Source: Candidatus Deferrimicrobium sp. (GTDB taxonomy: Archaea > Asgardarchaeota > Lokiarchaeia > Helarchaeales > HEL-GB-A). Taken from it: DNA of 64,000 nucleotides. The DNA lies in the NCBI GenBank assembly GCA_035531115.1, contig DATKTP010000172.1:18965-82964 (forward strand), given 5' to 3'. Each line of letters starts with the position of its first letter. The stretch's first letter is position 1. Below are positions 5,845 to 64,000 of this stretch, piece after piece. The position numbers and the translations under genes are program-made. A model generated the notes under the pieces. The model made no database searches. It had not been told where the DNA came from and was given only the letters and a program-made list of their open reading frames with translations.

Positions 5845-5884
5845 ATCAAATGTATCCTCTCTTTTTTATAAGAAAGGAATTGAT

Positions 5885-7135
5885 TTAGGGATACAACCCT
5901 CGAACTCTAATTGCTTCCGCGATGCGACCCACAGCAATCATGTAGGCTGCCGTTCGGAGCGGGACATTTTTCTGCTTTGCCAGATTATAGACTTCATGAA
6001 ATGCTTTTGTAATGTGCATCTTCAATTCTTGATTCACGCGTTCAAAATCCCAGAAATATGAGTGTAGATCCTGCACCCATTCAAAATAACTTACAACAAC
6101 TCCACCGGCATTTGCTAAAATATCTGGAACTACTGTGATTCCCTTCTTTTCAAGGATATTATCTGCTTCTGGTGTTGTTGGACCATTGGCTCCTTCCATT
6201 ACTATTTTTGCTTTGACTTGTTCTGCATTTTTCTTGGTAATTTGATTCTCAATTGCAGCAGGAATGAGAATATCACATTCAAGAGCAAGGAGGTCCTCAT
6301 TGGTTATCGGTTTTGTCCTAGGAAAATTAATGATTGAACCCGTTTCTTTTTCATGCTGCTTTAAAAGAACTGGATCAATCCCTTCAGAATTGTAAATTCC
6401 CCCCTTGATATCACTGATACCAATTATCTTACAATTCATCTCCTTTGCAAGAATATCCGCGACTACTGATCCCACGTTTCCGAATCCTTGCACTGCAACA
6501 GTTGTTTGTGCGTCTAACTTTATTCCTAATTTTTTACAGATCTCAGCAGTTACATAAGCTAAACCCCTTCCTGTTGCTGTTTCACGACCTTCAGAACCTC
6601 CAATAGAAATGGGCTTTCCAGTAACTACTCCTAGAGTTGTTTCACCGACACCCATTGAATAAGAATCCATAATCCATGCCATAATTTGTTTGTCTGTGTT
6701 CATATCAGGCGCAGGAATATCTTTATGCGCACCTAGAATATTTATTATTGCATAGGTATATCTCCGCGTTAAGCGTTCCAGTTCGCTTCTGGATAACGTT
6801 TTGGGATCACATACTATTCCTCCTTTGGCACCTCCATATGGTAATCCAACAACCGCGCATTTCCAGGACATCCACATACTCAGGGCTTTCATTTCATCCA
6901 TTGTGACTTTAGGAGAATAGCGAATTCCCCCTTTGGTGGGACCGAGCGCGCTATTATGTTGCGCTCGAAATCCCTCGAACACCTTCACAGATCCATCATC
7001 CATCTTAATGGGAATGGATACGACTGCAATTTGCATACAGTATTTTAGGATTTCATGAATCCAAGGTTCTAAGTTTAATTGGTTCGCAGCAATTTCGAGT
7101 TGTTTTAAGGCAATCTTGTACGGATTTTCCTCCAT
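5885..7135 (-). CDS. gdhA: glutamate dehydrogenase (Glu/Leu/Phe/Val dehydrogenase family)
   Basis: KGGIRYSP...GLPYGGAKGG motif, Rossmann GFGNVG. Confidence 0.9.
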   Translation of the reverse strand: MEENPYKIALKQLEIAANQLNLEPWIHEILKYCMQIAVVSIPIKMDDGSVKVFEGFRAQHNSALGPTKGGIRYSPKVTMDEMKALSMWMSWKCAVVGLPYGGAKGGIVCDPKTLSRSELERLTRRYTYAIINILGAHKDIPAPDMNTDKQIMAWIMDSYSMGVGETTLGVVTGKPISIGGSEGRETATGRGLAYVTAEICKKLGIKLDAQTTVAVQGFGNVGSVVADILAKEMNCKIIGISDIKGGIYNSEGIDPVLLKQHEKETGSIINFPRTKPITNEDLLALECDILIPAAIENQITKKNAEQVKAKIVMEGANGPTTPEADNILEKKGITVVPDILANAGGVVVSYFEWVQDLHSYFWDFERVNQELKMHITKAFHEVYNLAKQKNVPLRTAAYMIAVGRIAEAIRVRGLYP

Positions 7136-8191: not shown

Positions 8192-10438
8192 GTGGCTCTG
8201 GACTTGGACGCTTGGTTGTTGGATTTGAATGTGGAAGGCGATCGAATTGCACTATGGCTAAAACATCCGACAAAAGTGATCCGTAAATTAATCGAGTACA
8301 AGCCCTCGTTTTACGTTGTGCCTCAAAGGAAGGCATTACATGAAACAAAACAGGTTTTAGAATCGCATCCCGATATAGATCGCGTAGAAATTGTTCAGCG
8401 ATTTCATCCTATTCAGTCTCATGAAAAACGTCCTGTTTTACTAATCACCTGCGACCGATTATCAACGTTCGCTCGTACTTGGCATGATATCGAAAATTTA
8501 GAAAAAGTAGAAGTATGTAATGTCGATTTTCCACTGGAACAAAAGTGGCTCTACGAAACGGGCTTCTTTCCCATGGCGAAACTCAAATATACTGCTGGTG
8601 ATACCCTCAGTGCGTTGGAACTATGTGACAGCCAAGAGGCAATTCACTATGAAATTCCTGACTTGACACGTGTGAAACTTGAAGTTGGCATCAAAACGCA
8701 GTACGCCGTCGCCCGCCCTCAAGATTCGTTAAGCTGGATCCGGCTTCATAACGGCGAGGAAATCCTGCTCGATAAAATGAACGAACACGACATGATCCTT
8801 GAATTAATAAAAACCGTCCACGACTTGGATCCTGATATTATTGAAACCGATAACGGAGATAATTTTCTGTTTCCCTATTTGATCACCCGCGCTTCGAAAT
8901 ATGCCCTCTTAAATACCATCACATTCTCCCGCGATGGCATTCCGCTCCATAAATGCCTTCAACAATTTCACGGATCGGGCTCCTATTTCTCATATGGCGT
9001 CATGTATTACCGCCCTTCTCGTCAGGTTTGTCTGCATGGGCGCATTCACGTTGATATCGGAAGTGGCACACATGCCTTTCCCTTGCAGGGGCTTCCGGGG
9101 ATGGTCGAGGTCGCCCGCGTAACGCTTTCGCCCCTTCAGAAAGTTTCGCGGATCACGATTGGGCAGGCGATGTCCTCTATGCAATTTTATAAAGCACACC
9201 AGTTGGGTCTTCTCATCCCTCTAAGCAAAACGAATACCGCTGAGTATTTCAAATCTGGATTGAAGATGTTGGAAAGTGATCGAGGTGGGTTTGTTTATTC
9301 TCCCATCGTTGGGTTCTTTGAAAAGGTAGCTGAAACTGATTTCGCGTCCATGTATCCCAGCATCATGCTTACCCGGAACATCTCCCCCGAAACCATCCTG
9401 TGTTCCTGCAAGGATTCGCCCCTCCAAGTCCCCGAATTAGGTTACAATGTGTGCAACAGGCGAATTGGGCTTATTCCCCAAGCTTTGGAACTCATCTTAA
9501 CCAAGCGGAAGACCTACAAATTACTCGCAAAAGCTGGTTCCGACAAGGAACGCTATTCTAGCATGGAGAAAGCGCTGAAGTGGATATTAGTAACTTGCTT
9601 TGGTTATACAGGCTACCGCAATGCTCGCTTTGGGCGGATCGAAGCCCACGAATCGGTAACTGCATGGGCCCGGAAAATATTGCTGGAAGCCGCTCAAATT
9701 GCGGAAGGATTTGGGTTAGAAGTCATTCATGGGATCGTCGATTCTCTGTGGCTGAGTGGATCCGAGAATGAGCACATTTATGAACAATTTTGCGAGGCGG
9801 TAACCGCGGCAACTGAGATCGAAATGCAGTCCAAAGGGATCTACAAGTGGGTAGTGTTTCTTCCAACAAAAGCATCCCCTGCCGTGGGCGCCCTGACGCA
9901 TTATTATGGCGTTTTCCGTGATGGGACCATTAAGGTTCGTGGGCTCGAATTGCGGCGACACGACACGCCCCTTTTAATAAAACAGGCGCAAGATGAAATA
10001 ATGGGACTTCTAGCAAAAGCGAATAACTGGTATCAATTCCAGAAGTTGCTACCACACGCCCAGCGAACTTTACAGCAGTACATCGACCGCGTTATGCACG
10101 GAGATGTCGCCCTTTCCGATCTACTTGTCACAATGCGAATTTCCCGCCACCCCGAAGCATATAAGAATTATTCACGCCAAGCTATTGCAGCGTGGCAAGC
10201 GAAACGATTAGGTATGGAACTCCAGCCCGGGCAAATGGTGCACTACCTTATTACCAATGCCCGCGCCAAGCGCCCCCAAGAACGGGTTCTCATTGCCCAG
10301 CTACTTGATCGAACCACCCCGCGTTATGATCGCGATACATATCGTAAACTCTTGGACCGGATGTTTGAAAATATGTTGCTCTTTATGCCACTGCAGAAGC
10401 GAAAGTCGTTGTTATTCAGAAATAAGTGTTTGGTTTAA
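8192..10438 (+). CDS. family-B DNA polymerase homologue with substituted exonuclease and polymerase active-site residues (PolB2-like, probably inactive)
   Basis: N-term like PolB; Exo II NGDNFLFPYL (D->L); motif A DFASMYPSIM; motif B KWILVTCFGYTGY; motif C HGIVDS instead of YGDTDS; no FDIET. Confidence 0.7.
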   Translation: MALDLDAWLLDLNVEGDRIALWLKHPTKVIRKLIEYKPSFYVVPQRKALHETKQVLESHPDIDRVEIVQRFHPIQSHEKRPVLLITCDRLSTFARTWHDIENLEKVEVCNVDFPLEQKWLYETGFFPMAKLKYTAGDTLSALELCDSQEAIHYEIPDLTRVKLEVGIKTQYAVARPQDSLSWIRLHNGEEILLDKMNEHDMILELIKTVHDLDPDIIETDNGDNFLFPYLITRASKYALLNTITFSRDGIPLHKCLQQFHGSGSYFSYGVMYYRPSRQVCLHGRIHVDIGSGTHAFPLQGLPGMVEVARVTLSPLQKVSRITIGQAMSSMQFYKAHQLGLLIPLSKTNTAEYFKSGLKMLESDRGGFVYSPIVGFFEKVAETDFASMYPSIMLTRNISPETILCSCKDSPLQVPELGYNVCNRRIGLIPQALELILTKRKTYKLLAKAGSDKERYSSMEKALKWILVTCFGYTGYRNARFGRIEAHESVTAWARKILLEAAQIAEGFGLEVIHGIVDSLWLSGSENEHIYEQFCEAVTAATEIEMQSKGIYKWVVFLPTKASPAVGALTHYYGVFRDGTIKVRGLELRRHDTPLLIKQAQDEIMGLLAKANNWYQFQKLLPHAQRTLQQYIDRVMHGDVALSDLLVTMRISRHPEAYKNYSRQAIAAWQAKRLGMELQPGQMVHYLITNARAKRPQERVLIAQLLDRTTPRYDRDTYRKLLDRMFENMLLFMPLQKRKSLLFRNKCLV

Positions 10439-10915
10439 GGCAGGTGCGCTTTTCTCATTCAAGCTTAACGCGTAATAGGCTTGTATAATTCCACAGATGA
10501 TTGTGATATAAAGGATAAATTTTAATGGAAAAAAATTAACCACGATCCCCGTCAGTCCAAAGATGATCCAAAAAATTCCACCAAAGAAATGTAATAATGC
10601 ACTTGCCATAATGAAACATGGCACTCCCAGATTAAAAATAAAGATATCTATCTTAAATTGGAGTTGTTCAGGCCTCCCTTTCATTATATATTTAAGTAAA
10701 TAATAAAAAAAGCCCCAAATCAAGAAAAATAGTAAAAATTCTTGTAAAATATAGATGCTTAATCCTTGCCAAATACCATATTGTTCCATTAATTGCTGGA
10801 TTACTAAATTTCCTTCATCACTAATTTCATTTATGAAAATGTATGTCGCTATTACATCAAAAAAGGTCATAATTATATAGATACCAATCCAAAATCGCAT
10901 AGATTTGAGATGCAT
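10412..10915 (-). CDS. small integral membrane protein, unknown
   Basis: 167 aa, 4-5 TM segments. Confidence 0.4.
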   Translation of the reverse strand: MHLKSMRFWIGIYIIMTFFDVIATYIFINEISDEGNLVIQQLMEQYGIWQGLSIYILQEFLLFFLIWGFFYYLLKYIMKGRPEQLQFKIDIFIFNLGVPCFIMASALLHFFGGIFWIIFGLTGIVVNFFPLKFILYITIICGIIQAYYALSLNEKSAPALNQTLISE

Positions 10916-11040
10916 GCATCCACCTGCCTTGGAACCAACTGGTTTGAGGGTAAAAATAAGTTGATACTATCCTATTTAATATCCACAAAAAGAATTCAAC
11001 CGCCGAGAAGGTTAAGTTTCAAGTAAAAAAAAGGGTCTAG

Positions 11041-11781
11041 TTAAGGGATAAATTCTTCAATTAGCCGTAGCACTTCTTCAAAATCCAAATTCTCCATGCG
11101 AATTACATTTGAATTGAGAATAGTCTCCAAAGAAGTAAATTTAACACTTTTACCAACCAGAATCCCTCTGCCTGCTTTATTCAACATCAAAAAATCATTT
11201 TCAGAATCCCCAATTGCAATTATCTGAGATCTGCTATATCCCAGCGATTTTGCAATTCGCAACATTATTCTGTCTTTATAGAAACCATCTTCATGCCCTT
11301 TTATTGCCTTTAATTGTTCATTCTCATCAAATTGAAACGTAGTTGTAGAGAAATAATCGTTAAACTGGAGAATTTCCTTTGCCAATGCACAAAATTCCCA
11401 TGGTGTTCCTGAGATCACATAGACCATATAATTTAATCGGCAGCGTTGTACAAAATTCTTTGCGCCTTCCTTTATTTTTAAATGCTGCTTAAAAAAAGTA
11501 ATGAAAAATTCTTTATTCAGTTTATAAAGGGTCGTTTTATTTAAGTCTCTCCATCGTAGGAAGATCTTCTGTGCCCATAAGGCATATTTCGACATATCCC
11601 TCATGAATTCTTCATATAAGAATTCATCCTCTTCTTTCGTCATACCCATTTCTAAGTTCAGATTCTTCCAAAAAGATACTTCTTCCGTTAATGTTCCCTC
11701 TAAATCGCAAAAAATGATCCCCTTCTTCTGATTTTTTGAATCCGGAAATTGAACTTTCCGATTCTCTTGCGTTAATTCCAT
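11041..11781 (-). CDS. HAD-superfamily hydrolase
   Basis: IAIGDSENDFLML motif (HAD motif IV). Confidence 0.6.
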   Translation of the reverse strand: MELTQENRKVQFPDSKNQKKGIIFCDLEGTLTEEVSFWKNLNLEMGMTKEEDEFLYEEFMRDMSKYALWAQKIFLRWRDLNKTTLYKLNKEFFITFFKQHLKIKEGAKNFVQRCRLNYMVYVISGTPWEFCALAKEILQFNDYFSTTTFQFDENEQLKAIKGHEDGFYKDRIMLRIAKSLGYSRSQIIAIGDSENDFLMLNKAGRGILVGKSVKFTSLETILNSNVIRMENLDFEEVLRLIEEFIP

Positions 11782-12949: not shown

Positions 12950-13792
12950 ATGGAAGATAATATTAAAAATCTGATACGGCAGGGGCAAGAAGCGCAGAAT
13001 AGGGGAGAGTTAGGTAATGCATTGGAATTCTTTCAACGCGCAAAAGAACTTGCGCAGAAAGGGGGATATATTCTACTTAGCTCAACCTGCCTCGATTTTA
13101 TCGGTATCATATATACGGTGAGGGCAAATTACAAAGAAGCACTTACTTATTTCCAGCAATCTATGCAAATAAAAGAAAGGACAGGCGATTTATTAGGACA
13201 GAGCAGACTTTTTAACAAAATTGGCGTTGTATATCATGCATGGGGGAAATATAGTGAGGCAATCTCTTATTATAACCAAGCATTACAGATGAAGAAAGAG
13301 TTAAGGGATTTAAAGGGGCAGAGCACGCTCTTGAACAATATTGGAAATCTATATAAACTTCTGGGGAAGTATAAAGAGGCACTTGATTCTCTCCGGAAAT
13401 CATTGCAAATAGCAAAAGAATTAAGTGATTTGAAGGGGCAAGTCACGATTCTCAATAATATAGGCGAAATCTATCGGGTATTAGGGAAGTATGAAGAAGC
13501 ATTTGATTATTATTGCCAATCTCTAAGGATAGCAGAAGAAACTGAAAATAAACAAGGACAAAGCACTGTCCTCAATAACATTGGTCTTGTATATTATGCA
13601 TGGAGAAAGTATGAAGAGGCGCTTACCTATTTTCACCAATCGCTGCAAATGCAAGAAGAACTGGGGCAGGAAACGGCGCAAAGCGTAACATTAACCAATA
13701 TCGGTGATGCCTATCGGTCACTAGGGAAGATTAAAGAGGCGCAAATATATTCTGAAAAGGCAATACAAAAAGAAAATGAATTGAAAAGTTGA
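12950..13792 (+). CDS. tetratricopeptide (TPR) repeat protein
   Basis: Six to seven 40-aa repeats LGKYxEAxxYxxQSLQI...GQSxxLNNIG; visible about 120-bp periodicity in the DNA. Confidence 0.8.
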   Translation: MEDNIKNLIRQGQEAQNRGELGNALEFFQRAKELAQKGGYILLSSTCLDFIGIIYTVRANYKEALTYFQQSMQIKERTGDLLGQSRLFNKIGVVYHAWGKYSEAISYYNQALQMKKELRDLKGQSTLLNNIGNLYKLLGKYKEALDSLRKSLQIAKELSDLKGQVTILNNIGEIYRVLGKYEEAFDYYCQSLRIAEETENKQGQSTVLNNIGLVYYAWRKYEEALTYFHQSLQMQEELGQETAQSVTLTNIGDAYRSLGKIKEAQIYSEKAIQKENELKS

Positions 13793-13812
13793 ATGGATAA
13801 TAACATCGATCT

Positions 13813-14274
13813 TTAATATAACCGATGAAACGCATGACTCTTAAAAAGCCAAATCTCTGAAGTAAATCCAGAAAGGTCTTCATTTTTTAGACGGCGTAAA
13901 TAATGGAATAGGTTTTTCTTCTTTTCTTCATCAGCAAGAAAAGATTGTATGATATTTCTAATTATTGATTCGAAGAGCGGTATGAGAACGAATACCTTTG
14001 AAAAATGCAACTCTCGCGCACTAGTGAATATGTTGGGGATGTTTGTATAATCTTGAATTGCAATGGTGAATATATTGCTACCATTCACGTGATTAAATTG
14101 AAAATGACCATCGTTATCAATAAAGAATTGATCAAATAAATCTGAATGTTTTTGTAATTCCATCCAGAAGGCCTTAGTGAAACAAATATTATTTCCCACG
14201 TACCTGAGAATATTGTAATTAATACCCACTTGTATATATTTAAAATCCTTTTTGGATAACACGATTGGCGACAT
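13813..14274 (-). CDS. hypothetical protein
   Basis: 153 aa ORF, no motif. Confidence 0.35.
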   Translation of the reverse strand: MSPIVLSKKDFKYIQVGINYNILRYVGNNICFTKAFWMELQKHSDLFDQFFIDNDGHFQFNHVNGSNIFTIAIQDYTNIPNIFTSARELHFSKVFVLIPLFESIIRNIIQSFLADEEKKKNLFHYLRRLKNEDLSGFTSEIWLFKSHAFHRLY

Positions 14275-14610
14275 ATTCCATTAAGAAACCCTTTGTAAAA
14301 AGATACGCTGCGATAGTATTTAAATTAACTCATTAAGAACCCCTACTGATCAATGAATTAATTATAAAATTCTTTTTCCGACTAAATTTTAATAAAGTTC
14401 CAATTTAGTTCAATTTTTAATTACAGCGTATTTTCTATTCCGCCGTGCCGACACAAAAGCGGCAGATTTATTAGGGGGGTTAAAGGGGGCTGTGTATGTC
14501 AGGTACGAGCTCGAAACTTAAATTTATAAAAACACGTTCAATCCCTGATTTCACTAATATAACCCCTCGATCCTAGTCCAAGGTTTCCTTTTCACTGATC
14601 GAGAAGGTCA

Positions 14611-15387
14611 ATGACTCAACTCCTATTGAAAAAATCGTCCATCGCTTATGACGATTTTGAATGGCTCCAGAAAGTCAATCCTTTTGTTGGTTTTTCGCTC
14701 CATGGCCCCAAAGAAATTCACGATGCCTTCTGCCAGATGGAAGGCAGCTATGACAAGACGCTGGCTTCGCTTAAAACCTCTATTAAGATGAACATTAATG
14801 CAGGGGTTATAACTTGTGTTACTAAATTAAATTATAATTATTATTACACATGGATCCAATCGCTTGTTGGATTAGGCATTTCAACTTTTTTTATTCTCTA
14901 TTTTTCCCCCCTTGGACGTGGAAACGGGCGTCATGATTTACAATTATCAAATGAAGAATGGATGTCACTGTATTTAAGTTTAAAAGACTATGTATTATAC
15001 TCAAACCTGCCACTAAATATCTACTTTGAAACATCAGTTTTTCAATCTCCTCCCCCTCTTTCCAGAGGCGCACGCACTTCCTGTTATATCTTCTACAATT
15101 CTAATTGTGTTGTAGATGCAAATGGCGATGTCTATCCTTGTATTCTTTTGCTTAGAAATCCGGAATTTCGATTGGGAAATTTCAAAATAAATTCAATGTA
15201 CGAGATTTGGAGTCGATCAAACCCTGAATTATGGGATACTAAGCTTCAATCAACATCAAAATGTGATGTTTGCTCTTCTCTTCCCATATGCAGAAAAGGA
15301 TGCCCCGCGTATTACAGTGCAGGATTAGACTTCCGGTGTGATGGAAAACATATTCCAATCTGCCCTTTATATACCGAATTATTATAA
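14611..15387 (+). pseudogene. radical-SAM/SPASM-domain protein remnant lacking the N-terminal CxxxCxxC/GGEP half
   Basis: Starts in the mid-rSAM motif VGFSLHGPKEIHD; C-terminal SPASM Cys cluster CDVCSSLPICRKGCPAYY; in-frame TGA 12 nt upstream of the ATG; no rSAM core in any upstream frame. Confidence 0.5.
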
Positions 15388-50971: not shown

Positions 50972-52567
50972 GTGGATTATATGAATTATGAGCAATTAAT
51001 CGATGAAGCGTTGAAAGATAACTCGATGCTACATTTATCTCTTAAAGATCTGAGAACAAGGCAAAATGCGTTGCTAGAGAGTTTCTTTAACCATCACTAT
51101 ACAAATTGTGAGAAATATCGCAAATTTTGTGAGGGGAGAGATATTAATCCAACCATGGTAAAGACTTTAGACGATATTTCAAAAATACCCCTCTTAGATT
51201 CTTTTAAAACGCTGAGAAAAACGCAATTCCGCAGTGTTAAGAGGAAAAATATTATCGCTCAATTTTCTTCGACTGGATCATCGGGAAAACCGCTTCTTTG
51301 GATTTCATTAGACCAAAAAACTATGGATTGGATGGTCCAAGGAATGGTATACCTCCTTCAAACGCATATCAAAATGAAACCAGGGGCAACGCTGATGATG
51401 CTTCCTGATGTTCCTCAATTAAAATTTGCCGCGACTTGTAAGAAAGTCATGTCGCAAATAGATAATGAGTATTTCTTCGGGCTGCGCGCTATTTTTGGAG
51501 ATGATCCAAGACCAATAATAGAACCAAATACGAAAGATATCGAAGAATTCATAAAACATCCTGCGCCTGTAAAAAATTTGATAGGTTTTCCATTTACTAT
51601 AACGCAATTATATGATTATTTAGAAGCGCATGATATCAAACTTTCGCTGGGTAAAGATGGTGTCATTGTTACGGGGGGTGGGTGGAAACCACGGCAAAAG
51701 GATAGTAAGTGGGCAAATATAACGCGTGCAGAAATGGAAAAATATATTTCAAATGCATTTGATATTCCAGTTGAGAATATCCGTGACGTATATGGATGTA
51801 CAGAAATTCTTTTAGGATATATGGAATGTTCACATAAACGGTATCACGTCCCCCCCTGGTGTTACCACGTTGCAGTCAATCCGGATGATCTCTCAATTCT
51901 AAAAAATGGTAATAGAGGTCTTGGGGTTTGTTATGATTTCGCATCTCATTCATGGCCTGCTTTCGTTTTAACAGAAGACTTTATCAAGGTATCCGATGAG
52001 CAGTGTCCTTGTGGGATTTCAGGGCAGACAATTGAATATCTTGGCAGAATTCAAGACGAAGATCCCCGGGGATGCGCTTTTAAATTTGAAGATAAATTAT
52101 TTTCAGAGGAATATTTAAGCAAAGATTCAGTGAAACCAAGTCCCCAATCAACAGATGGGCTCCTACAATTTTTGATTAAAAATAAGGCAGCGGTTTCTGG
52201 AAAATTTGTCAATGAAAATATCGATTTATTTAAAAAAGCGATAGCGATGATTAATGAAATCACCACTTTTACATCGGAAGAGCTAACTTTTGTTGAAGAA
52301 ATTGAAATCTTTAAATTTATCACGTTAGGGAAAATGCTCTGTTATAAGGAGGGAACGCCGACAATACTTTCCGAACAAGAAATCATGGAACATATGGGAT
52401 TGCCCCTTGAAGCCGTCAAAAGTATTCTCAAACTATTTGAAAAACGAGATTTTATTAAAATAGTTGAAAAAGATGGTAAGAAGCTCTATCAATATACGAA
52501 AAAAGCTGACGAATTTGGAGAAGCGTTTTATCCATTATTGGTTTGGGCAATCAAGTGGCTGAAATAG
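50972..52567 (+). CDS. adenylate-forming enzyme of PaaK/LuxE (F390-synthetase-like) family with extra C-terminal domain
   Basis: SSTGSSGKP AMP-binding-like motif near residue 100; about 150-aa C-terminal extension. Confidence 0.5.
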   Translation: MDYMNYEQLIDEALKDNSMLHLSLKDLRTRQNALLESFFNHHYTNCEKYRKFCEGRDINPTMVKTLDDISKIPLLDSFKTLRKTQFRSVKRKNIIAQFSSTGSSGKPLLWISLDQKTMDWMVQGMVYLLQTHIKMKPGATLMMLPDVPQLKFAATCKKVMSQIDNEYFFGLRAIFGDDPRPIIEPNTKDIEEFIKHPAPVKNLIGFPFTITQLYDYLEAHDIKLSLGKDGVIVTGGGWKPRQKDSKWANITRAEMEKYISNAFDIPVENIRDVYGCTEILLGYMECSHKRYHVPPWCYHVAVNPDDLSILKNGNRGLGVCYDFASHSWPAFVLTEDFIKVSDEQCPCGISGQTIEYLGRIQDEDPRGCAFKFEDKLFSEEYLSKDSVKPSPQSTDGLLQFLIKNKAAVSGKFVNENIDLFKKAIAMINEITTFTSEELTFVEEIEIFKFITLGKMLCYKEGTPTILSEQEIMEHMGLPLEAVKSILKLFEKRDFIKIVEKDGKKLYQYTKKADEFGEAFYPLLVWAIKWLK

Positions 52568-53427: not shown

Positions 53428-53721
53428 CTAGTCTGGTATTTCTCCCTCATAGTAATTGTCATAATCTTTATCATAATAATTTTCATAATATTTTTCTTTA
53501 CTTTTATCATGTTTATCTATTATTTTTTTCTCTTGATCAAGCCAAGGTTCAGCATATTTTTTCTTTATTTCCTTTTTTGGCTTCTCGTATTCAGCTTCGA
53601 TTTCACTTGCCTTAAAAGGGCCATATTTACTTTTCTTTTTCTCTTTAGGATGCTCATCCATTTTATCTGCATCCAAAGGGTCATATCTACTTTTCTTTTT
53701 CTTTTTAGGCTGCTCATCCAT
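53428..53721 (-). CDS. low-complexity K/Y/D-rich small protein with internal duplication
   Basis: MDEQPKKKKKSRYDPLDADK / MDEHPKEKKKSKYGPFKASE; about 60-bp direct DNA repeat at 53581-53720. Confidence 0.35.
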   Translation of the reverse strand: MDEQPKKKKKSRYDPLDADKMDEHPKEKKKSKYGPFKASEIEAEYEKPKKEIKKKYAEPWLDQEKKIIDKHDKSKEKYYENYYDKDYDNYYEGEIPD

Positions 53722-57454: not shown

Positions 57455-59056
57455 TTATTTGAGACTCCGTTTATAGGGCACATAATCTATGAGGCTAGGG
57501 ATCTCTTTGCTAATATTATAAATATTAGAGCCAATTTGTTGAAAAATATGAGGGATCACAGCATTTGGATCTAGCTTTGTGAAGATACGATATTTTTCCT
57601 CTTCCCGTTCTTCAATTAGAAATGTTATTCCCGGTAATTTTCCCAATGCTTCGACATGGTCTGGGTTAGGCGAATTCAATTGGACTACAATTACTTTTTC
57701 ATGTAAGGGAAGCTCCCCAATCAGTTGCGTAAGCGTTCCAAACCCTAATTGCTTCCCGTCTTCGCTCAATACAAGAATATTATGACATCGCCTCAATTCA
57801 TCAGATTTACTGTATACGAAAATAGTGCTTGATATAATATCATTGATCGCTGAAATTGCATCCCACATTCTCTTTTTTTCCGTTGTATTTAACCCATTTT
57901 CAGGTTCTACTAAAAGAATAATGCTGGGCTGCGTTATTGCAGAAAATGCAAAAATCAATCGTCTTTTTTCACCGTCAGAAAGATCTTCCATTTTAAGTTT
58001 TCGTCTATTTGAAAGTCCAATTATCGATAATAAACTATTAATACGCTCCTTCATATCCTTTTTTTGTAAATTAATTCCATATTTATATAAAATGTTCTCT
58101 AAAGTTTTATTTTTCAGATTGTCAATGGTTTTCGGCGGAAGGTCGAAATCTATCAGTTTAATTTTCTCTTGCACCTTGAGTATGTCTCTTTCCCCAAATA
58201 GATTAATTTCCCCCTCGATTTTCATTGCTTTTCCCAAGAATGCATTGAATATCGCTAAAGGAATTTCCTTATTTAAACAATATATTCCAATGATATCGCC
58301 TTTCATCGCAGAGAATGATACATTTTTCGTTACTATCTGATTCTTCTCATTAATGAGTGATAAATTCTTAATTACCAAGAGTTTCTCAATATCTTTTATC
58401 CCATGCTCTGAAGTAAAGCGCTCTTCGATTTCCTGAACAATCTGAACAATGTGTGGTGGATTATGAGTATTCCAATTTCTAAGAGTTTGTAAAGATTGGG
58501 GTGATCCAAGAATCTTTTCTAATTGTTGGTGATAAATTATCTCAGGTTTCTGAGGATAATTCTTGTAATTTATTTCAAATTCAAAATTTAATTGCGATTC
58601 TAATTGATAAAAGATTCGGATATGATATTTCTTTCCCTCTACTGTTTTTGCATTATAGATTGCCTTAACAAGATTGAATTCTTCATCTAATTCATCTAAC
58701 AGGCTTTCTTTCACTTTCAACGTAGATATTCGGGACATAATTGATTCCACGGCATGAACCGCCCGAATCTGCGGATCCACGGTTTTTTGAATGATTTGAG
58801 GAATAAATTCGTAGAGATTGGCTTGTTGCCTGATATCTCGCGGCAAATTCATAATAATAGGCCTATTAGGATAATCCTCGGGAAACAGAATTTCCATATA
58901 AAGTTTACGATTTGGTGTATGGACATAGCCTGCACAACCTTGTACCCCGTTTTTTGTAATCATCCACCATCCAAAGCGCGAAATCAACTCAAGAATTTCC
59001 TTCTGTATCGTACTATTCTTACTTGGTTGATCCATCTTATTTATCTCAATATTCAA
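57455..59056 (-). CDS. fusion of two RWD/UEV-like (UBC-fold) domains with a degenerate ABC-2-type ATPase domain
   Basis: Two units with ...LFPEDYPNRPII and ...INYKNYPQKPEII (FPxxYPxxP hallmark; no HPN/Cys); ABC part keeps LSDGEKRRL signature but Walker A is CLNKEIPLA and Walker B ILLVEPE (D->V). Confidence 0.5.
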   Translation of the reverse strand: MNIEINKMDQPSKNSTIQKEILELISRFGWWMITKNGVQGCAGYVHTPNRKLYMEILFPEDYPNRPIIMNLPRDIRQQANLYEFIPQIIQKTVDPQIRAVHAVESIMSRISTLKVKESLLDELDEEFNLVKAIYNAKTVEGKKYHIRIFYQLESQLNFEFEINYKNYPQKPEIIYHQQLEKILGSPQSLQTLRNWNTHNPPHIVQIVQEIEERFTSEHGIKDIEKLLVIKNLSLINEKNQIVTKNVSFSAMKGDIIGIYCLNKEIPLAIFNAFLGKAMKIEGEINLFGERDILKVQEKIKLIDFDLPPKTIDNLKNKTLENILYKYGINLQKKDMKERINSLLSIIGLSNRRKLKMEDLSDGEKRRLIFAFSAITQPSIILLVEPENGLNTTEKKRMWDAISAINDIISSTIFVYSKSDELRRCHNILVLSEDGKQLGFGTLTQLIGELPLHEKVIVVQLNSPNPDHVEALGKLPGITFLIEEREEEKYRIFTKLDPNAVIPHIFQQIGSNIYNISKEIPSLIDYVPYKRSLK

Positions 59057-59231
59057 TTTTTCAAATCAAAGATATAAAATCTTAAACCTGATTATATCTA
59101 TTTACCAATAAATTCATTTTTATTCATATTAAATAATAACTATCTTTAAGCATAAATTTTATTTAAATCAAAACCAAAATGGGTTATATTAACCATGATA
59201 TACATTTAATGAACGTGCATGGAGGTTTTCA

Positions 59232-60224
59232 TTGACGGCAGAGGAAAAAGTAATTGATGTCAATTCGTTGAATGTGTATTACGGTGAGAAACAAATCATC
59301 AAGAATGTCTCATTCCATTGTTATAAAGGTGAGATCATCGGGATGTTCGGGATTTCTGGTGCAGGAAAAACAACAATCATCCGCGTTCTAACCTGTCAAA
59401 TTCCAGATTATAAGGGGTTTGTGAAGTGTTTTGGATACGAACCTAAAAAAAACCCGAATAAAATTATTTCTCAAATTGGCTATGTGCCTCAATTAGAAAT
59501 GCTAAATCTGTATTATGAATTTACAGCTATGAAGAATGTAGAGATTTTTGCTTCTATGTACTTAATTCCAAAGCAGGAAGCAAATAAGAGAGTTCAACGT
59601 TACTTTGAAATGCTTGAACTTCCTAAGGATGTTTGGGATTCAAAAGCGAAATTCCTTTCAGGTGGTGAAAAAAAAAGAGTTTCTATTGCTATTGGATTAA
59701 TAAATCAACCCCACATCCTATTTCTAGATGAACCTACAACAGGGGTTGATGCATCCCGTCGATATGATATTCTTAATTACCTTAAAAAATTGAATATGGA
59801 AATGAAAACTACGATGGTTATCGTTACTCATGATTTGGAGACTGCAAATATTTGTGATCGCATCGTTTTGCTCCGAAATGGTCAGGTCGTAGATTTTGAT
59901 ACCCCTAAGAATTTGATCTCTAAATTACCATCCCAAGGAAAAATTGCTAGACTGCGAATTCCCGGGTTAACTACTGAAATCCTCGGGCGTATCGCTGAAA
60001 TAGGTGCGGTTATTTATATTCTGCGTGTCGGCAAGGACGAAATTGAATTATATATTGATAGGATTGAGGAGAATTTAGAGCATATTGTCAATAAATTATT
60101 TGAAATGGGCATTGCCATTTCATCCTTAACACGTGATACGGCAAGCTTTCGCAGATTCTTTCAAATTCGGATGCAAGATATCGCCTCAAAAGAGAAATAT
60201 AAAATTATTCAAGCGATGGATTAA
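59232..60224 (+). CDS. ABC transporter ATP-binding protein (ABC-2 type)
   Basis: GISGAGKTT, LSGGEKKRVSIA, LFLDEPTTGVD, VTHD; TTG start with GGAGG SD. Confidence 0.85.
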   Translation: MTAEEKVIDVNSLNVYYGEKQIIKNVSFHCYKGEIIGMFGISGAGKTTIIRVLTCQIPDYKGFVKCFGYEPKKNPNKIISQIGYVPQLEMLNLYYEFTAMKNVEIFASMYLIPKQEANKRVQRYFEMLELPKDVWDSKAKFLSGGEKKRVSIAIGLINQPHILFLDEPTTGVDASRRYDILNYLKKLNMEMKTTMVIVTHDLETANICDRIVLLRNGQVVDFDTPKNLISKLPSQGKIARLRIPGLTTEILGRIAEIGAVIYILRVGKDEIELYIDRIEENLEHIVNKLFEMGIAISSLTRDTASFRRFFQIRMQDIASKEKYKIIQAMD

Positions 60225-60226
60225 AG

Positions 60227-63200
60227 ATGAGTGAGAAAAAGAAGAATTATAAATTAATTATTGGGATATTAATAATTTTTATTCTTCCTTTTTCTCTTCT
60301 GGTTGGTTTAATCTTATATAAACCCCCTCACCATTTTCAAACGTCTTATATTAATTCTATTATAAGTGAAACTAATAATTATGCTCTAACTTTCCAAAAT
60401 CAAGATGGTCTGTTCGTAGAGCCGGCTATTGATGTGATATATAACACAGTAGCAACTTATTTCTATTTGAATGGCACAACCCCCTTTCTATTCTCAGACC
60501 TCAACCTTTCTTACATCTCGTATTTTGCTTTAACTCGCCAAAACCTAGATGGGAGCTTTTCTGATTTTGCAGGTTCTGGGGATATGGTTTCAACGTTCAA
60601 GGCACTTATGACCATTAATTGGACTATTCCTGAAGAATTAAGCACGAATCCTGTAAAAATGAATTTGACGTACACATTTTTAAATGAATCTCGCAATTCA
60701 GATGGAGGTTATAGCATTCGCCCTCCCTTTGAACAACCAGCTGAATTTAATTTTGATATTGGTTATGGAATTCCTCTGGAGAATTTTTCAAAGGAAATCT
60801 CTTATATGGAATATACTCATGAAGCAGTCAAAACTTTTTCTCTTCTGGGGATAACTCCTCCAAACGCTCAAACGACTACCTTTTTTATTAATACTACATG
60901 TCGGCGTATTTTCATTTTTGAGCCAAACTTTCCTGCAGGTTTTGCTGCAACAAAATATACCCTCTCCCCTGATCTTCATAGCACATATCATGGTGTCGCT
61001 GCCTTGAGCGATTTAGGGTATTCAAAGAGCGATATCGATCTTTTCGGCAACATCACTCGTTTCATTGAACTCTGCTGGAATTCCACGGATGGTGGTTTCT
61101 CGATGTATCCTGGCAATGTCTCAGATGTTACCTCCACCTATTACGGAGTCGTAGCACTCACGCTCTTGGATTATAATTTTTCAACTTCTCTTGTCATAAA
61201 CCGCACTAAAATCATTGAATTTGTTGAAAACTCCCAAAATTTAGATGGAGGTGTTGGCGCACGAAATGGTCTTCCCTCGAGTTTCCAAAGTGCGCACCAC
61301 GCTGCGGCCACTATAAAATTGTTGGAATATCTGCTCGTTCCAGCAGATGTTACACCTCTTTTTTATTGGTTAACTGATCATAAGGCGCAAAATGGCTTAT
61401 ATGGAGAAAAACTCGTTGAAGCTCAATACTGGGGAATTAGATCGGCTTTCCTTGCAAACAATGAAGGGTCTTTAAATAGAAGTTCGATTTCTGCTTTTCT
61501 AATAAATTGCCAGAATCCTAATGGAGGTTTCGGATCGGTTCCAAATTCGACTTCTACGGTTGTAGATACGTATACTGCCATAGAATCATTATATCTCCTT
61601 AATAATTTATCACATATAAATACTCTCGCTGCAACTCAGTGGTTACAGTCTTTACAGACTGAAGAAGGCGGCTTTGCTTCTATAATTGGATTGAATGCCT
61701 TCTTACAGTCCTATGCGCCGCTGTATGGTTTTATTGCTGATTTGTTATTAAATGATAGCCGTCCTTCCAGTGAGGCAACCTTTTTTGCACTTGCAGCTTT
61801 AAGTAGATTAGGTGCATCGCCATTAAATAGCACATCACTACGCTTCTGGCTTCTCTCTATTCAAAACGCAGATGGCGGATTCCCATTTGCCCTCGGTATC
61901 CGAAGCGATGCTGTTTCTTCTTTTTATGCAGTACAATCTTTAGCACTTATTCGAGACGAACCTTTTTCAACGCTCTCTTGCATTCAATTCTTGAAAGGGT
62001 GCCAAGTAAGCGATGGGGGATTTACTTTCTATCCGATGATCGGTGAATATCTTAATGTTAGCTACTTATTCATATCGTATGTGGCGGCCAGAGCGATCTA
62101 TTTGCTTGCTACCCAACCCGCCGATGTATTTGGCGCGATGGATTGGTTTTTAACCTGCAAGGATGATTACACCTCTGGTTATAGCGACACCCCCTATTTT
62201 GGATCAGACTTGCGTAACTCTCCTTATCTAATCGATATCGTTCGAGAATTGAATATTGATCAATCGTTCGATCCCACTTCTTGGATACAAACGATTCTCT
62301 GGCTCCTTATAATCGAACTTGCCGCCTTAAGTGCCTTTGGAGTGGTGAAACTCAGTCGAAAATACCGGAAAGATATTGTTGGAATGAAGCGTATACAACT
62401 GAATATTGAAGAGTATCCCGCCGTCCATGTGAAAGGACTTACCATTAAGGTAGGAAAGAAGGTCATTTTAGAAGATGTAAATATGACATTACAGCATGGT
62501 GAAGTCTTAGGAGTTGTTGGTGAAAGCGGTGCAGGAAAATCTACATTTGTCAAGAGTATTTTGGGCACAAAAGGTTCGAGTGGCGAAATATTCCTATATG
62601 GGTTTGATATCCGAAAAGAGAAAAAGCGATTAAAACCTATAATTGGTTATGTACCTCAAGATCTTAGTAAAATTTATGAAAATTTCACGGTCATGGAAAA
62701 CCTCCTGCATTTTGGCAAACAATACGGCTTGGAAGAAAAAGAAATTATTCAACGTGGTGGTAAAATACTCCAAGATCTAGGGATTTTTGATAAGCGTGAT
62801 AGTTTAGTTTCAGCGCTTTCAGGTGGACAACGACGAAGGGCGTCTATTGCAGTCGGTATGATACACCAACCAACCCTTTTTATCCTTGATGAGCCTACTT
62901 CAGGGCTGGATCCCATAATCCGCGAACAGTTATGGATTACATTGCTCAATCTTGCTGAAATCCATAATACCACTCTCATTGTGATCACCCATTATCCCGA
63001 AGAGAGTAAATTTTGTACCAAAGTAGCTATATTCGGACGTAAAAGAGGTCTTATCGATTTCGGCCCCCCTCTGGAATTAATAAACAATCTTCCCGGGTCC
63101 GGTCGCGCTCTCGATGTTAATCTAAAAGAATCTATTGCGCCAATTTCTGTTGACTTATTACCGATTCTTCAAAAAGTTCCACAAATTGAATTTTTTCTCG

Positions 63201-63364
63201 AAGAGAAGAAAGGATCCCGCTATCGTATCTTCTCGAATCTCCCTGCAAAAACGCTACGAGCGATTCTTATACAAGCCCTTGGCACACCTCTTATTGAGAT
63301 AACTCAAAGTGAAGCGACTCTTGTTGATTATTTTAGAATAAAATCGTTGGAGGTTAAGGACTAG
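60227..63364 (+). CDS. fusion protein: TM - extracytoplasmic alpha/alpha-toroid (prenyltransferase/terpene-cyclase-like) repeats - TM - ABC ATPase
   Basis: N-terminal TM; eight or more QNxDGGF-type repeats (RQNLDGSF, SRNSDGGY, NSTDGGF, SQNLDGGV, CQNPNGGF, TEEGGF, IQNADGGF, CQVSDGGF); second TM; GESGAGKST, LSGGQRRRASIA, ILDEPTSGLD. Confidence 0.7.
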   Translation: MSEKKKNYKLIIGILIIFILPFSLLVGLILYKPPHHFQTSYINSIISETNNYALTFQNQDGLFVEPAIDVIYNTVATYFYLNGTTPFLFSDLNLSYISYFALTRQNLDGSFSDFAGSGDMVSTFKALMTINWTIPEELSTNPVKMNLTYTFLNESRNSDGGYSIRPPFEQPAEFNFDIGYGIPLENFSKEISYMEYTHEAVKTFSLLGITPPNAQTTTFFINTTCRRIFIFEPNFPAGFAATKYTLSPDLHSTYHGVAALSDLGYSKSDIDLFGNITRFIELCWNSTDGGFSMYPGNVSDVTSTYYGVVALTLLDYNFSTSLVINRTKIIEFVENSQNLDGGVGARNGLPSSFQSAHHAAATIKLLEYLLVPADVTPLFYWLTDHKAQNGLYGEKLVEAQYWGIRSAFLANNEGSLNRSSISAFLINCQNPNGGFGSVPNSTSTVVDTYTAIESLYLLNNLSHINTLAATQWLQSLQTEEGGFASIIGLNAFLQSYAPLYGFIADLLLNDSRPSSEATFFALAALSRLGASPLNSTSLRFWLLSIQNADGGFPFALGIRSDAVSSFYAVQSLALIRDEPFSTLSCIQFLKGCQVSDGGFTFYPMIGEYLNVSYLFISYVAARAIYLLATQPADVFGAMDWFLTCKDDYTSGYSDTPYFGSDLRNSPYLIDIVRELNIDQSFDPTSWIQTILWLLIIELAALSAFGVVKLSRKYRKDIVGMKRIQLNIEEYPAVHVKGLTIKVGKKVILEDVNMTLQHGEVLGVVGESGAGKSTFVKSILGTKGSSGEIFLYGFDIRKEKKRLKPIIGYVPQDLSKIYENFTVMENLLHFGKQYGLEEKEIIQRGGKILQDLGIFDKRDSLVSALSGGQRRRASIAVGMIHQPTLFILDEPTSGLDPIIREQLWITLLNLAEIHNTTLIVITHYPEESKFCTKVAIFGRKRGLIDFGPPLELINNLPGSGRALDVNLKESIAPISVDLLPILQKVPQIEFFLEEKKGSRYRIFSNLPAKTLRAILIQALGTPLIEITQSEATLVDYFRIKSLEVKD

Positions 63365-64000
63365 TGGCACATATCTGGAACCTCATTATCAAAGAGTTTG
63401 GGCGCATTAAAAGTGATCGTAAGGGGTTGATTATGCTCTTCCTCTTTCCGCTCATTACAATAATTATTTTCGGATTTTCCTCAGGGGGTGGTTACGAGAT
63501 CGCTTATACTGTTGGTATTATCAATCAAGATCCTACCACTCACGGTACTAATATGGTGAATGCGTTCAATAGTGCAAATACTACTATGACTGTTGTAGCA
63601 AATTTCACCACCACAAATATCGCGGAATTCCAAGCAGCCTACGAGGAGGCATATGACCTCCTAAAACATGATAAGATCGAGATGATTTGTATCATCCCGG
63701 AAAATTTTAGCGAATCTGTTGAGAATGGCTCAAATCCCGTTATAATAATCTATATTGATGGATCTGGTTTAACTTCTCAAAATGATCTCTACTTAGCCCT
63801 CACTGAGCCTTTTCTATACTTCAAAATGATTGAGGGAAACTGGAGCGGTACTATCCTAGTTTTTCCGTATCTAGAATATGACGTTCCTTCGGGATGGAAT
63901 CAAATTTTAAACTATATGGCAGGCTTAATGATTCCTCTAATCGTACTGGCTACAAGTATGAATGTTAGCTCTCTGAGTATAGTAACAGAATTACCATTAC
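63364..64000 (+). CDS. ABC-2 family transporter permease (5' part, continues beyond window)
   Basis: GTG start overlapping upstream stop; IKEFGRIKSDRKGLIMLFLFPLITIIIFGF N-terminal pattern. Confidence 0.6.
   Translation, partial: MAHIWNLIIKEFGRIKSDRKGLIMLFLFPLITIIIFGFSSGGGYEIAYTVGIINQDPTTHGTNMVNAFNSANTTMTVVANFTTTNIAEFQAAYEEAYDLLKHDKIEMICIIPENFSESVENGSNPVIIIYIDGSGLTSQNDLYLALTEPFLYFKMIEGNWSGTILVFPYLEYDVPSGWNQILNYMAGLMIPLIVLATSMNVSSLSIVTELPL

Follow-up and report, generated by a model that had tools for sequence, protein, structure and literature searches.

The 64-kb window (the whole stretch of DNA that was analysed) carries a minus-strand gene, hereafter the target, beside plus-strand genes of an ABC transporter. 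Translation and comparison with orthologues confirmed this open reading frame and its features as given in the preliminary description; it has 533 codons counted from a TTG, and its stop codon (57457-57455) is included in the coordinates. The aligned Met, which is the first residue in most orthologues, corresponds to M8 of the target, and because most orthologues begin there the protein is probably 526 aa long. About 40 bp upstream of the M8 ATG lies a TATA-like stretch, TTTATATC (about 59073-59080), which we infer to be a putative promoter element of the target gene. The features of the target and its neighbours are:

57455..59056 (-): whole target ORF, with UBC-like unit 1, UBC-like unit 2, a pseudo-NBD and a C-terminal domain
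59033-59035 (-): probable true start, ATG (M8), from the aligned Met of most orthologues and the codons read
58721..59023 (-): unit 1, residues 12-112, predicted non-catalytic UBC-fold domain
58853-58888 (-): LFPEDYPNRPII, residues 57-68, FPxxYPxxP turn of unit 1
58391..58720 (-): unit 2, residues 113-222, predicted non-catalytic E2-variant (UEV-type) domain
58535-58573 (-): INYKNYPQKPEII, residues 162-174, YPQKP turn of unit 2
58451-58474 (-): WNTHNPPH, residues 195-202, unit 2
57707..58390 (-): pseudo-NBD, residues 223-450, ABC-2/ABCA (DrrA-like) class
58253-58282 (-): Walker A position, YCLNKEIPLA against G(I/E)SGAGK(T/S)T in the two neighbouring canonical NBDs
57956-57982 (-): LSDGEKRRL, residues 359-367, ABC signature position
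57899-57919 (-): ILLVEPE, residues 380-386, Walker B position
57887-57898 (-): D-loop, NGLN against xG(V/L)D in the neighbouring NBDs
57803-57817 (-): H-loop position, VYSKS against (V/I)TH in the neighbouring NBDs
57458..57706 (-): C-terminal domain, residues 451-533, DrrA/ABCA regulatory-domain type
59232..60224 (+): canonical ABC ATPase, 330 aa, DrrA-like, divergent from the target; conserved cluster member
60227..63364 (+): toroid-ABC protein, 1045 aa, cluster member and closest paralogue of the target ABC half
63361..64000 (+): start of an ABC-2-type permease (frame translation), running off the window

All the strings quoted in the preliminary description were located in the target protein by a residue check, including EILELISRF (residues 20-28) and EEFNLVKAIYNA (residues 125-136), both likewise on the minus strand.

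Predicted structure, fold comparison and a family profile agree that the N-terminal half of the target, as modelled, comprises two UBC-fold domains that lack an active site, which is what had been proposed for the two N-terminal units from the sequence. The fold assignment draws on structure prediction together with the family profile; the predicted model has a pTM of 0.49, and the relative arrangement of its domains is of low confidence. Unit 1 starts with a helix, followed by four antiparallel strands, the FPxxYPxxP turn and, at the C-terminal end, further helices. The hallmarks of the UBC superfamily are present: a sheet of four antiparallel strands, with the YPxxxP turn linking strands 3 and 4, is preceded by a helix and followed by the C-terminal helices. 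Those of an active E2 are lacking from both units: a check of the target residues found no HPN motif, and no Cys follows strand 4 in either unit of the target sequence. The N-terminal half has a single Cys, C41, placed in strand 2 of unit 1, away from the position of the E2 active site; it varies, not being kept in distant orthologues. Being misplaced and variable, it bears out the earlier statement that HPN and the catalytic Cys are missing.

Two checks on the fold had been proposed, a Pfam match to RWD, UQ_con or UEV and a structural comparison with RWDs of the FANCL type. The first gave nothing directly with the query itself: no match to PF00179 (UQ_con), PF05773 (RWD) or PF05743 (UEV) was obtained at E up to 10, and Pfam and NCBIfam scans detected its ABC part only. 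Among unit 2 relatives, one of 76 segments matches RWD (0.0012) and one of 76 UEV (0.0046); four unit 2-type segments match Pfam BRE (PF06113), the best at 7e-4, below the cut-off; and four of the 29 unit 1 segments match RWD at sub-threshold values (best 0.013). Searched against PDB sequences, the unit 2 profile (76 segments) retrieved BRCC45 with an E of 8e-4 (22 bits, about 70 residues), and the unit 1 family profile nothing significant, its best match being L26 (E 0.18). The structural comparison came out in favour of the proposal, with FANCL ELF/URD among the top Foldseek matches of the two-unit model. These matches, together with Knl1-type double RWDs, span both units (7kzp_M, 3zqs_A and 8ppr_K; 172-237 alignment columns) with a marginal E (3e-3) and a high rmsd, the latter because the inter-domain geometry of the model is not confidently predicted. 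Profile comparison of units 1 and 2 with hhalign gives a weak relationship (E 4e-4 and a probability of 34% against alignment A4; E 4e-3 against u2_A5), and their homology rests mainly on the shared fold plus an HMM match with an i-E of 0.008.

In sequence, the unit 2 profile matches BRCC45/BRE (BRISC and BRCA1-A complex member 2) best, in an alignment across YP(x)xPP...WNxxNP plus the following helix. BRE is also a chain of inactive E2-variant domains serving as a scaffold, but the JAB deubiquitinase that it supports is eukaryotic and nuclear/cytosolic, and BRE is without the ABC module that the target carries; the similarity falls under the Pfam gathering score, and we take it as a possible likeness to the BRE-type UEV. 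Unlike FANCL, the target has no RING, which is present beside unit 2 relatives in other Asgard proteins. The ESCRT-I UEVs (Tsg101/Vps23 and the UEV-like domain of VPS37A) resemble the target units as E2 variants without a catalytic Cys; however, sequence identity is 10-16%, and the target lacks a steadiness-box, a coiled-coil and an ESCRT gene context. As for the RWD domains of GCN2, RWDD1-3, RNF25 and Listerin, the likeness is confined to the sub-threshold unit 1 matches, and in unit 2 the helix region with W...NPPH is closer in appearance to E2/UEV than to RWD domains.

The C-terminal half is recognised as an ABC ATPase fold by PF00005 (score 27.5 bits, cut-off 25; residues 269-386), with TIGR01188 drrA as its best NCBIfam match (E 6e-16) and ABCA3 NBD2 (E 1.4e-13) and 4yer as its best PDB matches. 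It has the NBD plus C-terminal domain layout of the DrrA/NodI/ABCA-type NBDs (ABC-2, type V exporters), as do both neighbours, but differs from these in that the nucleotide-binding and catalytic motifs are all gone and two UBC-like domains have been added N-terminally. Besides the differences listed above, alignment with the two neighbouring canonical NBDs reveals a missing Q-loop Gln and LVEPE in place of LDEPT at Walker B. The losses of Walker A, the Q-loop, the Walker B Asp, the D-loop and the H-loop recur in 29/29 family members, upholding the earlier description of a module that, judged from its sequence, is catalytically dead, every nucleotide-handling motif having been lost. BLASTP aligns the target ABC half over its full length with the NBD and C-terminal domain of the 1045-aa protein (26% identity, E 2e-28) and more weakly with the 330-aa NBD (E 6e-16), and an IEER.xEKYRIF motif is common to the target C-terminal domain and the C-terminus of the 1045-aa neighbour. 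On these alignments, the target ABC half and the toroid-ABC NBD evidently share a common stock.

Fifteen orthologues aligning over the full length share 49-64% identity with the target, and about 16 further, more distant representatives of 50%-identity clusters have the identical architecture. All four domains contain residues invariant across 29 members: F58 is at least 90% conserved; Y167, P168 and P171 of the YPxxP turn, like W195, are either unchanged throughout or kept in at least 90%; and E482 and E487 of the C-terminal domain are invariant. Intact full-length ORFs were found in every lineage examined (labelled Helarchaeota, Lokiarchaeota/Promethearchaeota and Hodarchaeota), and the transporter beside which the target lies is so far known only from genomes labelled Asgard. 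A related-locus search with alignment A1 retrieved only three loci, two of them from close Asgard relatives and the third a spurious bacterial ABC; a word-indexed search with the N-terminal 234 aa returned nothing, an artefact of index sensitivity, as orthologues of ~60% identity exist. The unit 2 type alone accounts for at least 81 clusters at 50% identity, including multi-UBC chains, RING fusions and the ABC fusion; some of these proteins also bear RING or E2-like domains, and one homologue matches Prok-JAB.

With respect to the neighbouring genes, two TMs of the 1045-aa protein, the first of them N-terminal, enclose the toroid, an extracellular, prenyltransferase-beta-like alpha/alpha region of about 650 aa; a canonical ABC NBD and then the C-terminal domain follow. 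Orthologous loci have two ABC2_membrane genes at the permease position, and two ABC-2 permease genes are seen wherever the contig extends (L001, L003, L004, L006, L007 and L011), the window holding the start of one. Two fully canonical NBDs are already encoded in the cluster alongside the two permeases, leaving no obvious free slot for a third NBD-like module. The target adjoins the toroid-ABC/NBD gene pair in the window and nine flanked loci (L001, L003, L004, L006-L009, L011 and L013), and it is likewise adjacent to this pair in a short fragment (L012). The toroid-ABC gene lies directly upstream of the target in L004/5, L006, L007, L011, L012 and L013, with the two genes overlapping by 4-8 bp (stop/start) in L006, L007 and L011; in the window lineage the target gene is inverted and divergently transcribed from the cluster, and in L001 an MFS gene sits between the target and the operon. 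The genes around the cluster are otherwise unrelated between loci. A 268-aa gene near the cluster in L003, considered as the longin-like gene of distant loci, which in Loki/Hod-type clusters codes for a membrane protein with a cytosolic domain, proved not to be homologous to it, and the longin-like N-terminal profile found nothing significant in the PDB. The adjacency expected of a toroid-ABC/ABC-2 transporter subunit is found across divergent genomes; thus, the suggested association with the adjacent transporter gains considerable, if circumstantial, support from gene order, the target lying in the cluster at all loci examined and being overlapping or apparently translationally coupled in distant genomes.

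The target is invariably found next to one set of ABC transporter genes, and we therefore take it to be a probable, hitherto undescribed adaptor subunit of their transporter. We accordingly favour, as the probable reading, a non-catalytic cytoplasmic accessory subunit of an Asgard-labelled ABC-2/ABCA-type transporter. The pseudo-NBD and C-terminal domain would be a docking module alone, imitating a real NBD, that would attach the target to the NBD/regulatory-domain layer of the transporter, most likely to the toroid-ABC protein. By analogy with BRCC45/BRE, FANCL, the ESCRT-I UEVs and RWD proteins, the tandem UBC-like domains would be a protein-binding platform, through which a partner from the cytosol or the membrane would be recruited to the transporter, or its state be reported. 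In a same-locus comparison the target has 24-35% identity and its partners 48-60%; its faster evolution fits a module released from catalytic constraint. Counting against the adaptor reading are the missing slot for a third NBD-like module, the inversion of the gene in the window lineage, the intervening MFS gene in L001, the lack of ubiquitin-system genes in the window and the low confidence of the predicted domain arrangement.

The preliminary description had held that the ABC module could supply only its signature motif to a heterodimeric site. The pseudo-NBD would then be the degenerate half of an asymmetric heterodimer with the toroid-ABC or 330-aa NBD, in which a single composite ATP site is functional and its counterpart dead. 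In the close set (the query and 14 orthologues) the signature indeed reads [LI]S[DE]GE in 12/15, the other three differing at position 2 or 3 (LPEGE, LGEGE/LGDGE, LAAGE), and G362, E363 and R366 are invariant while all other motifs are gone; the toroid-ABC NBD is the closest paralogue of the pseudo-NBD, and the translational coupling of the two genes in distant loci suggests a 1:1 assembly. However, the D-loop Asp is gone too, two fully canonical NBDs already serve the two permeases, and a canonical signature is found in 0/14 distant members (LNLSQ, LKPSE, LSDFE, LAPQE, LTRMD, LTPLE and similar). As the signature is degraded in the distant orthologues, its donation is unlikely to be the conserved function of the family; with LS[DE]GE limited to the close subfamily the proposal is weakened, and we hold it to be doubtful. 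The degenerate sites of TM287/288, TAP1/2 and CFTR resemble the target cluster in placing one incompetent NBD module beside canonical partners. There, however, the degenerate site has kept its Walker A and with it ATP binding, and each of the two NBDs is TMD-coupled, whereas the target wholly lacks Walker A and is a third, soluble NBD-like protein.

We think it unlikely that the tandem UBC-like domains are a ubiquitin/Ubl receptor or an E2/E3/JAB-binding module, with the transporter under Ub-like control or handling modified cargo. Among their nearest relatives in structure are the Ub-binding UEVs Tsg101/Vps23 and Mms2, their best sequence relative is the scaffold of a JAB/MPN deubiquitinase complex, the unit 2 relatives keep company with RING, E2-like and, in one case, Prok-JAB domains, and E2s, a UEV-like protein and an RWD-like domain have been reported from Asgard archaea (PMC6601020; PMC10936438). 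Against this, neither the conserved cluster nor the window holds a Ub, E1, E2, RING or JAB gene, and no Ub-like or further UBC-like gene occurs in the 64-kb window. Moreover, most RWD and many UEV-like domains typically bind non-ubiquitin partners, as do the kinetochore RWDs, the GCN2 RWD and FANCL. An altogether different setting, in which the target has nothing to do with the transporter but acts in translation after the manner of the eukaryotic RWD (GCN2)-GCN1-ABC-F (GCN20) system, is suggested by the presence of aIF1A immediately downstream of the target in the window and L001-L003; the cooperation of RWD proteins with ABC-type ATPases on eukaryotic ribosomes offers a lead only. It is highly improbable, since aIF1A is not adjacent in L004, L006, L007 and L011, whereas transporter adjacency is universal, and the ABC part, which carries a C-terminal domain of DrrA type, is ABC-2/ABCA in class rather than ABC-F. 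We likewise rejected a functional link to aIF1A or Elp3, this synteny being limited to closely related, broadly syntenic genomes. Finally, the loss of all catalytic motifs and the faster evolution relative to the neighbours would also be expected of a decaying, functionless duplicate of the transporter NBD with a fortuitous UBC resemblance, but the full-length ORFs in all lineages examined, the invariant residues across four domains and the conserved operon position effectively refute this, and we give it next to no credence.

Inactive E2-like domains of the UEV, RWD, BRE and FANCL types are seen as largely eukaryotic inventions. For Asgard archaea the searchable literature records no more than one RWD-like domain and a UEV-like homologue (PMC6601020); the at least 81 unit 2-type clusters therefore point to an Asgard repertoire of non-catalytic UBC domains that is much larger and more modular than documented. 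The fusion of UBC-like domains to an ABC ATPase had been put forward as undescribed, and we likewise found no account of it in the searchable literature. The reuse of a nucleotide-blind NBD as a putative docking module in a conserved transporter operon is an unusual way to attach an accessory domain. A more far-reaching interpretation, which we offer as speculative and rather improbable, is that of a coupling device, so far Asgard only, in which the pseudo-NBD plugs a eukaryote-type UBC-fold module, a relative of such tandem UEV/RWD scaffolds as BRE and FANCL, into the transporter, such that a ubiquitin-like, E2/E3/JAB or trafficking (longin-type) partner would control, or be controlled by, the ABCA-like transporter; this would make it a prokaryotic forerunner of ubiquitin-linked transporter regulation and of the eukaryotic tandem inactive-E2 scaffolds. 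The five-gene operon is a purifiable system, and it could reveal roles of UBC-fold scaffolds before or beside ubiquitin signalling.

The target gene lies on an archaeal chromosome with a GC content of ~37%, in a window whose genes include two thermosome subunits, Hsp70, PolB, PolX, Elp3 and aIF1A. It is divergent from a set of transporter genes, with 175 bp in between. The peptide strings that the preliminary description quoted from it were all found where it had placed them.

Target and transporter genes in the window
57455-59056, minus strand: target ORF, 533 codons counted from TTG
59033-59035, minus strand: ATG of M8, the likely true start, at the aligned start position in orthologs
59232-60224, plus strand: canonical nucleotide-binding domain (NBD) protein, 330 aa, the divergent neighbor
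60227-63364, plus strand: 1045-aa toroid-ABC protein, divergent cluster member
from about 63361, plus strand: ABC-2 permease, start only, divergent cluster member

Since the orthologs start at the M8 position, the start was probably misannotated at the TTG, and the product from the ATG seven codons downstream is probably 526 aa long. A TATA-like TTTATATC ~40 bp upstream of this ATG (window 59033-59100) points to transcription with a short leader from the 175-bp divergent promoter region. Elsewhere in the window, a possible gene between those for a hydrolase and Elp3 (53428-53721, minus strand) would encode 97 Lys/Glu/Tyr-rich residues with an internal repeat, MDEQPKKKKKSRYDPLDA.. / MDEHPKEKKKSKYGPFKA... 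A LuxE-type acyl-protein synthetase (50972-52567, plus strand; E 9e-42 across residues 10-376) carries a C-terminal extension of ~150 aa with no Pfam match.

Pfam and NCBIfam recognize only the C-terminal half of the target: ABC_tran slightly exceeds its cut-off at 27.5 bits, and drrA/NodI-type models match with E-values of 1e-13 to 6e-16. By sequence, this module belongs to the ABC-2/ABCA class, its best PDB matches being ABCA3 NBD2 (1.4e-13) and the Thermotoga ABC-2 NBD 4yer. Within the window it is most closely paralogous to the NBD and C-terminal domain of the 1045-aa neighbor (26% identity over the whole length, E 2e-28), with which it has an (I/L)EE(R/K)xxx(K/R)YRIF motif in common; the 330-aa NBD is more distant (E 6e-16) and matches without the C-terminal domain.

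ABC motifs in the two canonical neighbors and in the target
Walker A: neighbors GISGAGKTT / GESGAGKST; target CLNKEIPLA
Q-loop: neighbors keep the Gln; gone in target
Walker B: neighbors LDEPT; target LVEPE
D-loop: neighbors xG(V/L)D; target NGLN
H-loop: neighbors (V/I)TH; target YSKS
Signature: neighbors LSGGE / LSGGQ; target LSDGE

The losses in the Walker A, Q-loop, Walker B, D-loop and H-loop recur in 29 of 29 family members, which bears out the earlier proposal of a dead ABC ATPase; judged by these motifs, the NBD-shaped module cannot handle ATP. The residues that remain invariant in the ABC half are the structural G253, G257, F287, G288 and L348, together with E482, E487 and G509 of the C-terminal domain.

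Residues 1-225 drew no direct match in the Pfam and NCBIfam scans. We therein distinguish unit 1 (residues 12-112) and unit 2 (113-222), and built an AlphaFold2 model of both from a 16-sequence N-terminal alignment. In this model unit 1, with a pLDDT of 77-95 per 10-residue block, consists of a helix (13-28), strands at 31-35, 38-46, 51-58 and 68-70, and helices through residue 111; unit 2 shows the same order of elements at low confidence.

UBC-fold comparison
VPS37A UEV-like: 10.4
Tsg101 UEV: 9.7
GCN2 RWD: 9.1
Vps23 UEV: 8.7
Listerin RWD: 8.7
E2 enzymes: 8.5
FANCL, BRE, Knl1: lower

Foldseek searches with the two-unit model placed tandem-UBC proteins at the top (FANCL, the FANCL central domain and Knl1), in alignments covering both units with marginal E-values (3e-3). 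The family profile of unit 2 aligns with the first of the UEV domains in BRCC45/BRE (E 8e-4), its YPkkPkikf...letlknWneknPphiveiirele pairing with YPelpPdfiF...LqnLasWNpsNPecLLlvvkEL; among unit 2-type segments searched against Pfam, four match BRE below its cut-off and single ones match UQ_con (9e-9), RWD, UEV and Prok-E2_B. Unit 1 alone gave only sub-threshold tendencies toward RWD, FANCL_d1 and UQ_con, and no match among PDB sequences. It is nevertheless detected by a unit 2 HMM built without unit 1 sequences (i-E 0.008), and hhalign aligns the two units at strand 3 - YPxxP - strand 4 (E 4e-4). Both units lack an HPN motif and have no Cys beyond strand 4; C41 sits in strand 2, where distant orthologs have I, F, L, V or M. 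Together with the fold evidence, these absences make the preliminary structural reading, of tandem RWD/UEV-like domains lacking a catalytic site, correct, with the refinement that a UEV-type E2 variant fits unit 2 better than a canonical RWD.

A search with the full-length target returned 15 orthologs (516-641 aa, 49-64% identity), one labeled Candidatus Helarchaeota, and a genome scan located the closest ones in Helarchaeota Hel_GB_A. In the word-indexed protein search the N-terminal 234 aa alone gave 0 matches, while the full-length query gave the 15 orthologs covering that very region at ~60% identity; negatives of this search on short queries are thus to be treated cautiously. An exhaustive phmmer search with residues 1-234 against 1.84 billion cluster representatives recovered 81 proteins within an E-value limit of 1e-3, of which local domain mapping assigns ~16 to the unit 1 - unit 2 - ABC architecture (20-35% identity); in the remainder, one to five copies of the unit 2-type domain occur in other settings. 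Every source label given is Asgard (Helarchaeota, Promethearchaeota/Lokiarchaeota and Hodarchaeota), and the public annotation is uninformative, being either "hypothetical protein" or an unspecific "ABC-type ... ATPase subunit". In the 641-aa ortholog P0015 a tandem duplication of unit 1 places three UBC-like units ahead of the pseudo-NBD; the units are therefore separable modules. In four relatives unit 2-type domains form part of longer chains with 3-5 UBC-like domains. The order in P0020 and P0022 is E2-like, two unit 2-type domains, RWD; in P0030 and P0039 RING fingers accompany them, a FANCL-like combination of tandem UBC/RWD with RING in archaea.

The toroid-ABC protein comprises an N-terminal TM segment, a ~650-aa extracellular region with many N-glycosylation sequons (NxS/T), a second TM segment and a canonical NBD with C-terminal domain. 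The extracellular region matches alpha/alpha toroids of the prenyltransferase-beta/squalene-cyclase type (RabGGTase beta, 6e-14), and it is unusual for an ATPase to be anchored to so large an ecto-domain through one TM. Four close-relative loci (L001, L003, L008, L009) have the layout of the window, with two ABC-2 permeases further along; since synteny between those genomes is broad, this by itself is little proof. Decisive is the conservation around distant orthologs (23-35% identity) in L004/L005 (labeled Helarchaeota), L006, L007 (labeled Lokiarchaeota), L011 (labeled Promethearchaeota), L012 and L013: amid unrelated flanking genes, the cluster stays complete, with all its genes in one direction, in the order permease, permease, NBD, toroid-ABC, target, and in L006, L007 and L011 the target overlaps the toroid-ABC stop by 4-8 bp. 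At these loci identity to the window proteins is 48-60% for the partners and 24-35% for the target, which is therefore a fast-evolving but obligate member of a transporter operon. The suggested link to the adjacent transporter thus holds as a conserved gene adjacency. In L007 (MAG BAJALOKI3, 5779-6809) the ortholog of the 330-aa NBD is broken into two reading frames (180 and 134 aa), perhaps through a frameshift, assembly error or pseudogenization; between the permeases and the NBD, this locus also has an inserted gene for a TPR protein.

Directly 3' of the target, the Loki/Promethearchaeota-type clusters carry a further conserved gene of 266-287 aa, which overlaps the target in L006 and was not found in the window or the Helarchaeota-type loci.

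Positions of the 266-287-aa gene
L006: 7722-8585
L007: 11750-12550
L011: 10568-11374
L013: 3299-4105
L012: 2212-2364 (fragment)

Its ~120-aa N-terminal domain, followed by about four TM helices, looks longin/roadblock-like; it gave one sub-threshold Fuz_longin_1 match (E 0.007) and none in a PDB search. Just downstream of the L006 cluster (8700-11077 and 13152-14816) are three eukaryote-signature-like genes, for a VWA/Ssl1-like protein with a weak RING match, a VTT-domain membrane protein and an Arf/Roc-type small GTPase, an association seen at this one locus only.

The target joins two inactive UBC-fold domains to a nucleotide-blind NBD-shaped module, and is encoded, and apparently co-translated, with the toroid-ABC subunit. 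We consider it probable that the pseudo-NBD and C-terminal domain dock on the transporter: mimicking a real NBD, they would attach the target to the cytoplasmic layer of NBDs and regulatory domains, most plausibly that of its paralog, the toroid-ABC protein, leaving the tandem UBC-like domains to form a protein-binding platform, as in BRE, FANCL, ESCRT-I and RWD proteins. The preliminary description proposed that the pseudo-NBD could donate only its signature motif. This could apply to the Helarchaeota-like subfamily, where [LI]S[DE]GE is kept in 12 of 15 close members (the other three differ at position 2 or 3). As the function of the whole family it is weakened by the decay of the signature in all 14 distant members (e.g., LKPSE, LSDFE, LAPQE, LTRMD, LTPLE) and by the presence of two canonical NBDs for the two permeases, and we regard such donation as unlikely.

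The proposed coupling to a ubiquitin-like or E2-binding signal concerns what the platform binds. The BRE and UEV affinities of the UBC-like domains, and the RING and E2-like domains accompanying unit 2 relatives, would suit a Ub, Ubl, E2 or JAB partner, but a search of the cluster and the 64-kb window found no such gene, and we consider this partner rather improbable. An active E2 is rejected on the missing catalytic residues, and both a decayed functionless duplicate, at odds with the conservation and context, and a translation-linked role are contradicted by the data.

The component folds are already known: E2s, a UEV-like protein and one RWD-like domain (PMC6601020), as well as ESCRT-I UEV domains (PMC10936438), have been reported from Asgard archaea. 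As the preliminary description had supposed, we found no account of a UBC-like/ABC fusion in the open-access literature, nor of a toroid-ABC/ABC-2 transporter cluster; the search covers open-access text only, and absence of a description is therefore no proof. The architecture of the target is new, and the protein probably represents a new kind of accessory subunit for ABC transporters. Through it, inactive E2-like domains emerge as a large and modular family in Asgard archaea, and the target's cluster offers a concrete five-gene system for testing the function of such domains.
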